Virus genome (UHGV): UHGV-0349585
DNA from: a virus
Direction: 5' to 3' (one strand)
Length of the DNA stretch: 14,578 nucleotides
Shown: positions 5,991-12,164 of the stretch, piece by piece
How the letters are laid out: each line of letters opens with the position of its first letter
Numbering within the stretch: position 1 is the stretch's first letter
Program-made: the position numbers and the translations under genes
Notes under the pieces: generated by a model
Told to the model about the DNA's origin: nothing
Seen by the model: the letters and a program-made list of their open reading frames with translations, nothing else
Databases searched by the model: none

Positions 5991-6140
5991 CCTCTCGCCC
6001 CAAAAAAAACGCATAACCAATTGTATTTATTTCAAAATTAATAGATACAACTCACTAAACATCGCAATTCAGATCTCTCGATCACCTTCCCAATCCACAC
6101 AACCCTGCAAAAAATAAATCTATATAAAAAACATACAGAT

Positions 6141-6203
6141 AACCATCTGCGGTGATAAATTATCTCTGGCGGTGTTGACATAAATACCACTGGCGGTGAT
6201 ACT
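6141..6203 (+). promoter_or_regulatory. OL3-OL2-OL1 operators and pL promoter
   Basis: 17-bp operators at 6141-6157, 6161-6177, 6185-6201; -35 TTGACA (6175-6180); -10 GATACT (6198-6203). Confidence 0.9.
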
Positions 6204-6242
6204 AAGCACATCAGCAGGACGCACTGACCACCATGAAGGTGA

Positions 6243-6273
6243 CGCTCTTAAAAATTAAGCCCTGAAGAAGGGC
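6243..6273 (+). promoter_or_regulatory. nutL (boxA and boxB)
   Basis: boxA CGCTCTTA (6243-6250); boxB hairpin GCCCTGAAGAAGGGC (6259-6273). Confidence 0.85.
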
Positions 6274-6430
6274 AGCATTCAAAGCAGAAGGCTTTGGTGT
6301 GTGTGATACGAAACGAAGCATTGGCCGGAAGTGCGAATCCGGATTAGCTGCCAATGTGCCATTGCGGGGTGTTTTCGTTCAGGACTACGACTCCCACACA
6401 CAACCAAAGCTAACTGACAGGAGAATCCAG

Positions 6431-6757
6431 ATGGATGCACAAACACGCCGCCGCGAACGTCGCGCAGAGAAACAGGCTCAATGGAAAGCAGCAAATCCCC
6501 TGTTGGTTGGGGTAAGCGCAAAACCAGTTAACCGCCCTATTCTCTCGCTGAATCGCAAACCGAAATCACGAGTAGAAAGCGCACTGAATCCGATAGACCT
6601 TACAGTGCTGGCTGAATACCACGAACAGATTGAAAGCAACCTGCAACGTATTGAGCGCAAGAATCAGCGCACATGGTACAGCAAGCCACGCAGTGAAATG
6701 GGTGTGACTTGTGTTGGTCGCCAGAAAATGAAATTAGGCAGCAAACCACTTATTTGA
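6431..6757 (+). CDS. N: N antitermination protein (108 aa), lambda-like with a divergent C-terminus
   Basis: MDAQTRRRERRAEKQAQWKAANPLLVGVSAKPVNRPILSLNRKPK... with Arg-rich N-terminal motif; AGGAG RBS before ATG at 6431; ORF-track frame 6299-6757 is an upstream extension into the leader. Confidence 0.9.
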   Translation: MDAQTRRRERRAEKQAQWKAANPLLVGVSAKPVNRPILSLNRKPKSRVESALNPIDLTVLAEYHEQIESNLQRIERKNQRTWYSKPRSEMGVTCVGRQKMKLGSKPLI

Positions 6758-6765
6758 GGTGAGAT

Positions 6766-7236
6766 ATGACAATATCATGGAGCGTACCTTTTCCTGAATC
6801 AGAAACTGAACATGATGGAATGCCTGTTTTCTGGAGATTCCAGGCGACAGTTGAAGAATATGGAATCAAAATATTCGCACTTCAATATATAGCTTTTCAT
6901 CAGACAGAGCATTATGCATGGTTGGTTCCTGCGCATTGGATTGTTAATTTTAAACCAGCACCAAATCAGTGGTTACAGGAATGGAAACAAAAGAGAAATA
7001 GATATGCAATTAAGAAAGTAGCAAAAAATGCAGAAAGATCTTTTGCATTCCCAACGAAGAAACTTGCCATTGAAAGTTTATTGCGCCGGAAGAAATACCA
7101 TTTAATGAGAATCAAACAAGATTTGGCTGTTGTATCAACTCTTGTTGATGGGATGAAGAATATTGATACATCAACACCAGATATTGAATATAACTTTGGA
7201 CACAACCAAGAAACAGAAAATTGGGTATTTTATTAG
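6766..7236 (+). CDS. Hypothetical protein (156 aa), AT-rich accessory gene directly downstream of N
   Basis: GAGGTGAG RBS then ATG 8 nt after N stop; visibly AT-rich versus neighbours (by eye); no motif I recognise; Trp/His-rich N-terminal half, Lys/Arg-rich middle. Confidence 0.7.
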   Translation: MTISWSVPFPESETEHDGMPVFWRFQATVEEYGIKIFALQYIAFHQTEHYAWLVPAHWIVNFKPAPNQWLQEWKQKRNRYAIKKVAKNAERSFAFPTKKLAIESLLRRKKYHLMRIKQDLAVVSTLVDGMKNIDTSTPDIEYNFGHNQETENWVFY

Positions 7237-7250
7237 TACGAATAAGCACT

Positions 7251-7278
7251 GTGTATTCATTCCAACGAGTGAATACAC
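7251..7278. repeat. Perfect 9-bp inverted repeat with 10-nt loop
   Basis: GTGTATTCA (7251-7259) and TGAATACAC (7270-7278); no T-run follows. Confidence 0.5.
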
Positions 7279-7340
7279 GGAGCAATGTCGCTCGTAACTA
7301 AACAGGAGCCGACTTGTTCTGATTATTGGAAATCTTCTTT

Positions 7341-7367
7341 GCCCTCCGGTGTGAGGGCAATTTTTTT
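7341..7367 (+). terminator. Intrinsic terminator between the AT-rich ORF and the coiled-coil gene
   Basis: GCCCTC/GAGGGC stem with 6-nt loop followed by AATTTTTTT. Confidence 0.6.
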
Positions 7368-7379
7368 GACGGAGGATAT

Positions 7380-8348
7380 ATGAGTGAAGTAACAGATTTA
7401 GTTGTTATTGAAAAAGCAAATGCAATGACTGTATTTCAGTCTGCCGACCAGATTGAAGAAATCCTTCAAAAGGTTGAACGTGAAGTTATGTCCTTTGTGC
7501 CTGATATCACAACGGCAAAGGGCAGAAAGGAGATCGCTTCTCTGGCGTATAAAGTTGCGCAGACGAAAACATATCTCGATGGTCTTGGAAAAGACCTTGT
7601 TGCTGAACTGAAGGAAATTCCAAAGCTAATTGATGCCAACCGCAAGACAGTGCGCGATCGCCTTGATGAGCTGAAAGCCAAGGCACGCCAGCCTCTTACT
7701 GATTATGAAGAGGAACAGGCGCGAATTAAAGCTGAAGAAGAAGCTAAGGCAGCAGCTGAAGCTCTCGCAAAGCAAATTGAGTCTGACCATGAAATAGCGA
7801 TTTTGATGGATCGCGAATTTGACCGCCAAAGAGAAGAGGCAAGACTCAAAGCGGAGCAGGAAAAGCGAGAGCATGAAGAACGCTTAAAAAGAGAAGCTGA
7901 AGAGAAAGCCAGAGCTGAAGCCGAAGCAAAGGCAAAAGCCGAAATTGAAGCAGCAGCAAGGCGAGAAGCAGAAGCTAAGGCCGCAGCGGAACGTGCAGAG
8001 CGTGAACGCATTGAAGCCGAGCAACGAGCACAGCGCGAAGCAAAAGAGGCAGCAGAACGAGCTGAAAGAGAAAAGCAGGCAGCAATTGAAGCAGAACGCA
8101 GAAAAGCACAGGAGGAGGCTGAACGAATCCGGCGCGAGGCTGAAGCAAAAGAGCAAGCCAGAATAGCAGAAGAAAAAAGAATCAAGGACGAAGAAGAGCG
8201 TAGAGCAAAGGATAAAGCTCACCGAAAAGAAGTAAATAACAAAATACTTGCTGACCTTATCAAGGTTGGCGCATCAGAAGATGTTGCTAAAAATATCATA
8301 ACAGCCATCGTAAAAGGCGAAGTATTCGCAACAAAAATAACCTACTAA
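7380..8348 (+). CDS. Charged coiled-coil protein (about 322 aa) with Glu/Ala/Lys/Arg-rich low-complexity central region
   Basis: GGAGGA RBS then ATG at 7380 (MSEVTDL...); central 200 residues are EAKA/ERAE-type repeats; globular-looking ends; ORF-track frame starts 18 codons upstream without an RBS. Confidence 0.75.
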   Translation: MSEVTDLVVIEKANAMTVFQSADQIEEILQKVEREVMSFVPDITTAKGRKEIASLAYKVAQTKTYLDGLGKDLVAELKEIPKLIDANRKTVRDRLDELKAKARQPLTDYEEEQARIKAEEEAKAAAEALAKQIESDHEIAILMDREFDRQREEARLKAEQEKREHEERLKREAEEKARAEAEAKAKAEIEAAARREAEAKAAAERAERERIEAEQRAQREAKEAAERAEREKQAAIEAERRKAQEEAERIRREAEAKEQARIAEEKRIKDEEERRAKDKAHRKEVNNKILADLIKVGASEDVAKNIITAIVKGEVFATKITY

Positions 8349-8372: not shown

Positions 8373-8504
8373 ATGATTTACGCAATCGCGGGAGGCGCTC
8401 GCATGGGTGCCTTCCAACTAAATGAATCTTTACTTGAACGAATCACCCGTAAATTACGTGACGGATGGAAAAGAGTTGAGGTCTTATTATGCGCAATGAA
8501 ATAG
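8373..8504 (+). CDS. cIII: CIII-like protein (43 aa), putative FtsH inhibitor
   Basis: My own translation MIYAIAGGARMGAFQLNESLLERITRKLRDGWKRVEVLLCAMK; shares the ESLLERITRKLRDGWKR core with lambda CIII; AAGGA RBS. Confidence 0.7.
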   Translation: MIYAIAGGARMGAFQLNESLLERITRKLRDGWKRVEVLLCAMK

Positions 8505-11901: not shown

Positions 11902-12164
11902 GTGAGTCAAAATGCCAAATTAATGGCAACAAGATAGAACCGTGCGCGGCGTTGGCACAATCCCTGGAGCATGACGCTGAATACACGACGCGAAAAGGTC
12001 TGCTGAAATACAAAATCTATAACCATGCATTAATTCATTCACAAGACCTGATCATGCTGCGGTCTGGTGAATTTTCTAAATCGCCTATTCGAGTTTCATT
12101 TTGCCCGTTCTGTGGTGAAAGTCTGAAAACGTGGGAAGCGGAGGCAACCAGTGAGCGAAATTAA
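11898..12164 (+). CDS. Hypothetical Cys-containing protein (88 aa), GTG start
   Basis: AGGAGG RBS 7 nt upstream of GTG at 11898 (GTGA overlap with the previous stop); C-terminal [10 protein letters not shown] zinc-ribbon-like motif. Confidence 0.5.

Follow-up and report, generated by a model that had tools for sequence, protein, structure and literature searches.

We analyzed a 14,578-nucleotide stretch of DNA from the virus genome UHGV-0349585 (hereafter the window), in which a perfect 9-bp inverted repeat occupies positions 7251-7278 and comprises GTGTATTCA (7251-7259), the 10-nt spacer TTCCAACGAG (7260-7269) and TGAATACAC (7270-7278). The repeat lies exactly where the original prediction had put it, in the intergenic region after an AT-rich gene (GC 0.355 in 6801-7200), and the genes and signals around it are collected in Table 1. 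Upstream, window positions 6103-6732 align with lambda 35689-35062 (oL/pL, nutL and N) at 95% identity and on the same strand, which places the palindrome on a pL transcript, as had been supposed; judging by this homology, pL is the origin of the hairpin-bearing transcript. The true start of N likely lies near 6434, inside the mechanical ORF. The product of the AT-rich gene that follows N had no match in a Pfam search, and the interval 6704-7366, covering the end of N, the counterpart of L0079 and the spacer, is 98.6% identical to phage 933W. We also observed a mosaic joint in the last ~50 nt of N (6704-6732), with lambda-like sequence (95%) upstream of it and 933W-like sequence (98.6%) downstream.

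Table 1. Features of the window around the inverted repeat, in order of position
Feature	Positions	Strand	Basis or remark
pL promoter, TTGACA-17-GATACT	6175-6203	+	Promoter scan, 10/12 matches; inside the 95% lambda block
nutL boxB, GCCCTGAAGAAGGGC	6259-6273	+	Scan hairpin GCCCTTCTTCAGGGC on the minus strand; matches the lambda NutL annotation
Lambda-type antiterminator N, mechanical ORF	6299-6757	+	Pfam N36, E = 2.5e-26, residues 46-80; 95% DNA identity
AT-rich 156-aa gene, function unknown (933W L0079, H-19B gp17, phrog_1636)	6766-7236	+	Upstream neighbor of the palindrome
Left edge of the cassette, GAATAAGCACT	7240-7250	+	Aligned flanks of >100 loci
Palindrome, core of the RNA stem-loop (allele A)	7251-7278	+	Stem 7251-7262 with 7267-7278, loop CAAC 7263-7266
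Homologue of lambda sRNA LPR1/PreS, 88 nt	7280-7367	+	Sequence identity to lambda
PreS seed core, TGTTCTGATTATTGGAA	7315-7331	+	Region removed by the published lpr1 seed deletion, primers P970/P971
PreS intrinsic terminator, equivalent of lambda tL2a	7339-7367	+	First terminator-like site downstream of pL; terminator scan
322-aa gene, function unknown (phrog_1376)	7380-8348	+	One of ~8-10 alternative downstream neighbors

The spacer that holds the palindrome corresponds to a known small RNA locus, with window positions 7246-7366 being 98.3% identical over 121 nt to lambda 34045-33925, the ral-ea10 spacer. The lambda sRNA LPR1, renamed PreS, is Hfq-dependent and ~88 nt long with a processed ~68 nt form, and has the terminator tL2a as its 3' end; it is expressed in the lytic cycle only, silent in lysogens and appearing on pL derepression, and it activates dnaN translation, which yields more of the host sliding clamp DnaN and favors lytic replication (Silverman et al., bioRxiv 10.1101/2024.10.31.621285). 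According to the cloning primers of the same study, the published lpr1 clone begins GAGCAATGTCGCTCGTAACT (bioRxiv 10.1101/2024.10.31.621285). This start is window position 7280, and 7280-7367 is exactly 88 nt, where 7280 as the PreS 5' end stands for the authors' clone start together with a Northern size estimate and not for a mapped nucleotide. The seed core in the window matches, base for base, the stretch that the published seed mutant lacks, and the stem of the tL2a equivalent, TTGCCCTC-CGGTGT-GAGGGCAA at 7339-7360, is followed by a T7 run at 7361-7367. By its sequence, seed, terminator and location, 7280-7367 belongs to the PreS/LPR1 family. The separate terminator that had been noted 60 bp past the palindrome is thus real, but it had escaped notice that the 60 bp and the terminator together are the known sRNA, ending at tL2a. 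The lambda locus resembles the window in sequence (98% over the 121 nt), in its position in the pL operon, and in its seed, terminator type and palindrome, and differs in its neighbors, which are ral and ea10 in lambda, whereas the window has a 933W-type gene upstream and a gene other than ea10 downstream.

The homology arm of the published deletion primer P969 ends in CACTGTGTATTCATTCCAACGAGTGAATACACG (bioRxiv 10.1101/2024.10.31.621285), so that lambda carries the identical palindrome one base upstream of lpr1. The palindrome, ending at 7278 against a start equivalent to 7280, lies outside the sRNA as published and is a flanking element. We found no mention of the palindrome or of the origin of the PreS 5' end in the main text of the PreS paper or the supplementary files examined, and neither these nor the other sources searched contain RACE or other end-mapping data, or nuclease data, on that end. 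A full-text literature search with the PreS seed sequence returned no paper, and a search of Rfam at gathering as well as permissive thresholds returned no family, the best hit being RyhB (E = 0.4), which covers the terminator only. Papers on Pas-sRNA, HnrS and an anti-sRNA (Tree 2014) were set aside, as they are about other loci. We also rejected a 32-codon ORF at 7285-7383, which is a CDS in phage Huey, as a gene: its GGAG-to-ATG distance is only 2 nt and its 3' part crosses the PreS terminator into variable sequence, so that it is probably no gene. This ORF starts inside PreS, and its stop codon overlaps the start of the next gene as ATGA.

By itself, the 9-bp repeat has no significance, since about one per window is expected from chance: when spacers of 3-20 nt are allowed, the window holds 2 perfect inverted repeats with 9-nt arms, compared with 1.24 +/- 1.39 in 300 first-order Markov simulations, 100 of which (100/300) contained at least 2. 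RNA structure prediction, a check that the original prediction had proposed, gave a 12-bp stem with a CAAC loop for the plus-strand RNA, including a U7260.G7269 pair, at -21.7 kcal/mol (z = -7.3), and this fold was matched by none of 200 dinucleotide shuffles. Weaker outer pairs extend the structure to 7246-7283, with 17-nt arms that are 82% complementary, and a fold of all 132 nt of the spacer reaches -46.1 kcal/mol (z = -5.2). Directly 3' of the stem stands GGAGCAATG and not a T-run, and the palindrome is absent from our terminator scan, in agreement with the earlier judgment that it is unlikely to be an intrinsic (Rho-independent) terminator.

We then compared this site across phages and bacterial genomes. 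Using 7237-7368 as the query, the block at ~7240-7367 was found in 327 phage records at about 97-98% identity, nearly all of them falling within 95-99%, including lambda, HK022, 933W, Stx1 and Stx2 phages, SfI and Salmonella phages. Among complete E. coli genomes, 2,234 of 5,426 (41%) gave a match to this query, with as many as 6 copies in a genome, and none of the eight E. coli records listed carries a feature annotation under the match. Our survey of hairpin alleles covered 186 loci with the PreS seed, drawn from two IMG/VR scans. The window type (allele A) accounts for 120 loci and is almost invariant in 119 of them; the variants seen are two changes in the loop, an A-to-G change through which a U.G pair is retained, and two C.A mismatches, each a singleton. 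HK022, counted as allele A, has its 5' arm replaced at a recombination joint and folds only weakly at the hairpin site (-6.1 kcal/mol, z = -0.4).

Another 64 loci carry a second hairpin, allele B (mEp043 type), which reads TATAGCAGATT-UACG or UGCG-AGTCTGCTATG and lies in the same flanks as allele A (GAATAAGC ... GAGCAATG), a single base again separating the stem from GAGC. The allele B fold has 11 continuous base pairs and an energy of -15.9 kcal/mol. Of the 9 outer pairs, 7 have changed on both sides from one allele to the other and are still Watson-Crick, and the inner U.G and U-A pairs are common to both (pairs were counted by our own script in the structural register; a MAFFT alignment of the alleles gapped the 5' arm). 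This is, at the level of sequence comparison, the covariation expected of a structured RNA, provided by two lineages only and therefore amounting to two observations with no continuous series between them. No third hairpin allele was found in IMG/VR or in species-representative genomes.

These data bear on whether the hairpin could be a functionless passenger, conserved because a young PreS block spreads by recombination. Within allele A the cassette is uniformly ~98-99% conserved, and polymorphism is low across 7246-7347 with no extra constraint on the stem, which is what a passenger would show and which also speaks against a role for the hairpin. The frequency of 9-bp palindromes expected by chance fits a passenger equally well, as does HK022, which keeps PreS despite its broken hairpin. 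Against this, 64 loci have at this position an independent hairpin of other sequence, identically spaced, only 6 of 4000 core shuffles fold as well as allele B and 0 of 4000 as well as allele A, and most of the polymorphism inside either allele is confined to loops or yields G.U pairs. On balance we consider a mere passenger improbable. It is the extended complementarity and fold, the near-invariance in 119 of the 120 allele-A loci, and the different hairpin at the same site in 64 loci that together lift the palindrome above chance.

The two alleles also allowed us to ask on which strand the structure would act. Minus-strand RNA folds more weakly for both (-15.8 kcal/mol for allele A and -12.7 kcal/mol for allele B), because the T.G positions of both alleles become A.C. 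Since those T.G pairs hold only in plus-strand RNA, the predicted folds point to the pL-sense RNA. This has consequences for a protein-binding palindrome, as the original prediction had suggested, that is, a DNA site for a dimeric phage or host protein acting as operator or roadblock. Perfectly complementary 9-bp arms with a 10-bp spacer would suit such a site, and alleles with wholly different arms around a similar centre are a pattern that variants of operator specificity could give. The T.G positions, however, favor RNA pairing on one strand, and allele B, folded as single-stranded DNA, does not clearly outperform shuffles (z = -1.8). Nor does the half-site recur in any meaningful way: the window holds one more exact copy of GTGTATTCA, at 11978-11986 on the minus strand, which is isolated and which we judged to be chance, and there is no operator-like cluster. 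Moreover, the alleles share no arm sequence, and allele A is found in different immunity regions, with no fewer than 15 gene sets upstream and ~8 downstream of it and no consistent partner gene. We regard a protein-binding site as very unlikely.

To place the hairpin relative to the mosaic joints of these phages, we examined the flanks of the cassette, whose neighboring sequences form 21 clusters on the upstream side and 10 on the downstream side. Hairpin, sRNA and terminator thus travel as one among lambdoid phages, beside many different genes. Left breakpoints between phages cluster 5-11 bp upstream of the palindrome, at 7240-7246 (homology to lambda and to a Salmonella phage begins at 7246), and the right edge lies just past the T-run, ~90 bp from the palindrome. 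Breakpoints at or inside the hairpin were seen only in mEp043-type loci, where homology resumes exactly at 7280, and in HK022 (~7257). By these alignments, the mosaic joint appears in most loci to lie a few bases upstream of the hairpin and not inside it. An exact allele-A hairpin ahead of non-PreS sequence, as scored at diagnostic start positions, gave 0 hits in two IMG/VR scans of 2.9 million viral contigs, from which it follows that the hairpin belongs to the PreS unit and not to the AT-rich gene.

It had also been proposed that the palindrome is a recombination junction marking the cargo boundary, and that the same palindrome be sought at cargo boundaries in other prophages. The hairpin is indeed found beside many gene sets, but in almost all loci inside the conserved block and not at the joint; what stands is a mosaic boundary 5-11 bp upstream, and the palindrome itself is probably not that boundary, as it sits within the cassette and travels with the sRNA. 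A signal that marks or creates the boundary would draw on the start of homology to many phages so close upstream, and on the mEp043-type and HK022 junctions at 7280 and ~7257. In almost all loci, though, the palindrome lies within the conserved block and not across a joint, the right-hand joints are ~90 bp off, there is neither a recombinase association nor a duplicated site, and ordinary homologous exchange inside a linker common to these phages would account for the pattern. A recombination signal accordingly seems to us highly improbable.

The left edge itself preserves what may be a trace of an older gene. In several phages, as read from the printed sequences, the TAA in GAATAAGCACT is placed as a possible stop of unrelated upstream ORFs, and at four loci (L007, L024, L049 and L076) unrelated upstream regions end in GAA TAA right before the hairpin. 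In the window, the ORF stops at TAG (7234-7236), which is followed in frame by TAC GAA TAA. The recurrence of GAA TAA at the cassette edge suggests, from sequence, a shared ancestral gene end. We also found a second conserved non-coding block, absent from the window, in lambda-type loci (e.g., L004, L011 and L015), where an extra terminator-like hairpin, GGCCG-CATAGT-CGGCC followed by TTTATTTTT, lies ~35-60 nt before the equivalent of 7251 in many loci and is followed by a shared 45-nt linker.

We next considered how PreS itself arises. Our consensus scan found no plus-strand terminator-like site between pL and 7339, from which we infer an N-independent pL transcript of ~1.16 kb that runs from pL (~6210) through N and orf156 and ends at the PreS terminator. 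No plus-strand sigma-70-like promoter for PreS was found in the promoter scan, with no -35/-10 pair at the right distance from 7280; a minus-strand promoter match from 7255 to 7227 was dismissed for its low score and non-conserved sequence. Were 7280 a transcription start and the palindrome overlapped by a PreS promoter, the -35 and -10 positions would lie in the conserved block, and allele B does contain TGCTATGTG, a weak extended -10-like string. Allele A, by contrast, has no suitably spaced hexamer in which the key positions 2 and 6 are A and T, the scan shows no plus-strand promoter-like site, and PreS is absent in lysogens and appears only on pL derepression, all of which makes a dedicated promoter most unlikely. 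With no promoter in the scan and silence in lysogens, PreS would have to come from the pL transcript.

Our preferred reading, to which we assign a probability of roughly 55%, is that the palindrome forms an RNA stem-loop on the pL transcript that would serve as the 5' boundary of a portable 3'-UTR cassette of hairpin, PreS and terminator, and that its probable function is to position the cleavage releasing PreS, to cap the upstream mRNA, or both. Such a cassette would run from the stop codon of the upstream gene through the hairpin and PreS to the tL2a terminator. PreS, having no promoter of its own, would be cut out of the pL transcript, with the stable hairpin directing an endonuclease, most likely RNase E, to cut at its 3' foot. 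Afterwards the hairpin would stay behind as a 3'-terminal cap that may shield the N-orf156 message from 3' exonucleases, and a second cut near 7298-7300 could give rise to the published ~68 nt species.

The enzyme that had originally been put forward was RNase III, and here the two parts of that suggestion part ways. Processing as such is plausible because the palindrome adjoins an RNA 5' end known from the literature, abutting the published lpr1 start at 7280, but RNase III as the enzyme fits poorly. According to this alternative the hairpin is an RNase III site on the pL transcript, like those of lambda sib and the N leader, and a cut within the stem makes the PreS 5' end or triggers decay of the upstream RNA. 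Lambda uses RNase III elsewhere on pL transcripts, and a stable RNA duplex next to an RNA 5' end, whose helix is lengthened to 7246-7283 by the outer pairs, is compatible with this enzyme. Typical E. coli RNase III substrates, however, offer a largely unbroken duplex of roughly 20 bp, or about two helical turns. The hairpin falls well short of that length: its continuous helix has 12 bp in allele A and 11 bp in allele B, and 14-16 bp when mismatches are allowed. An in-stem cut would, in addition, place the 5' end within the 3' arm and not past it. We judge RNase III processing to be quite unlikely.

Several observations also count against the stem-loop as a PreS processing boundary. The foot of the stem, ACACG/GAGCAAUG, is a poor match to the RNase E preference RN/WUU (slashes mark the cut). 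In addition to the uniform conservation of the cassette, two of the singleton variants break a pair and one keeps a G.U pair, and HK022 has PreS despite its replaced 5' arm. In lambda itself, N-modified polymerase should read through tL2a, a difficulty for 3' end formation there. A role of the hairpin as an insulator of PreS was considered and dropped, as in equilibrium folding of 17 upstream contexts the hairpin did not consistently lower the pairing of PreS with sequence upstream of it (means of 15.8 with the native hairpin, 13.4 with one arm mutated and 10.1 with the hairpin deleted); in the same 17 contexts, seed accessibility was slightly higher with the hairpin (0.35 vs. 0.30).

Comparison with known systems places the proposed cassette among several types of RNA element. 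CpxQ and SroC are enterobacterial Hfq-dependent sRNAs derived from 3' UTRs and released by endonucleases. Like them, PreS uses the terminator of the mRNA, apparently lacks its own promoter and also exists in a shorter, processed form; it is encoded beyond the stop of the last gene ahead of the first pL terminator. Unlike them, PreS has a strong stem-loop immediately 5', and the unit is portable between unrelated upstream genes. REP elements are stabilizing stem-loops at the 3' ends of bacterial mRNAs; by analogy, the palindrome is a stable hairpin without a T-run just past a stop codon and would end the upstream fragment after a downstream cut, but it has no sequence relation to REP elements and is linked to the downstream sRNA and not to any upstream gene. 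The RNase III sites of lambda sib and the N leader are also hairpins on pL transcripts that control RNA fate, with much longer, irregular duplexes, whereas the stem of the palindrome has only 12 bp. Finally, Juhala et al. in 2000 and related work reportedly described conserved linker or boundary sequences at the joints of lambdoid modules, which the cassette resembles as a short conserved non-coding block with interchangeable flanking genes and joints at gene ends. It differs from them in encoding a functional sRNA with a structured 5' element, beyond serving as a crossover substrate.

Together, these results indicate that the palindrome is a real, conserved RNA hairpin, an undescribed detail of the known PreS system, and that it likely indicates the point of PreS excision from the pL transcript. 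A stem-loop that abuts the sRNA, two compensating alleles, and the occurrence of allele A only with PreS lead to a testable idea of PreS biogenesis, for a unit present in 41% of complete E. coli genomes, Stx phages included. More tentatively, and at what we would put as clearly short of even odds, the hairpin may be the dedicated biogenesis signal of a plug-and-play sRNA cassette, fixing the release of PreS and sealing the upstream mRNA whatever the gene, with two equivalent, sequence-unrelated alleles kept and the output of PreS independent of context. If the hairpin is such a portable biogenesis signal, this would explain how PreS keeps its function as it is passed around between lambdoid and Stx phages. 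The locus also carries a warning for annotation, as the spacer is not empty: RefSeq shows no feature there, and one phage record calls the probably spurious 32-codon ORF.

We additionally noted natural variants of the cassette and other minor features. At three loci (L107, L065 and one allele-B locus), PreS is joined after the seed (..GGAAATC, the equivalent of 7334) to another terminator, GCCGCTCTATATGGGCGGC then ATTCTTTT, a naturally occurring swap. In phage PA45 (L008), an insertion sequence with two ORFs annotated as "mobile element protein" breaks the 5' part of PreS at ~7293, and the hairpin is lost. The hairpin with PreS, identical to lambda or nearly so, was also found on contigs assigned to Pseudoxanthomonas, Shewanella, Chromatium, Bradyrhizobium, Neobacillus, Kitasatospora and others (L191, L192, L194, L195, L198, L199, L202-L206, L208-L210 and L214), several with coverage near 1 and some ~48.5 kb long; these hits on contigs of unrelated organisms almost certainly reflect contamination of the assemblies with lambda DNA and not host range. 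Finally, farther downstream in the window, 48 bp at 8424-8471 are perfectly identical to cIII of lambda and 933W amid differing surroundings, and this match sits in a 43-aa cIII-like ORF at 8373-8504.
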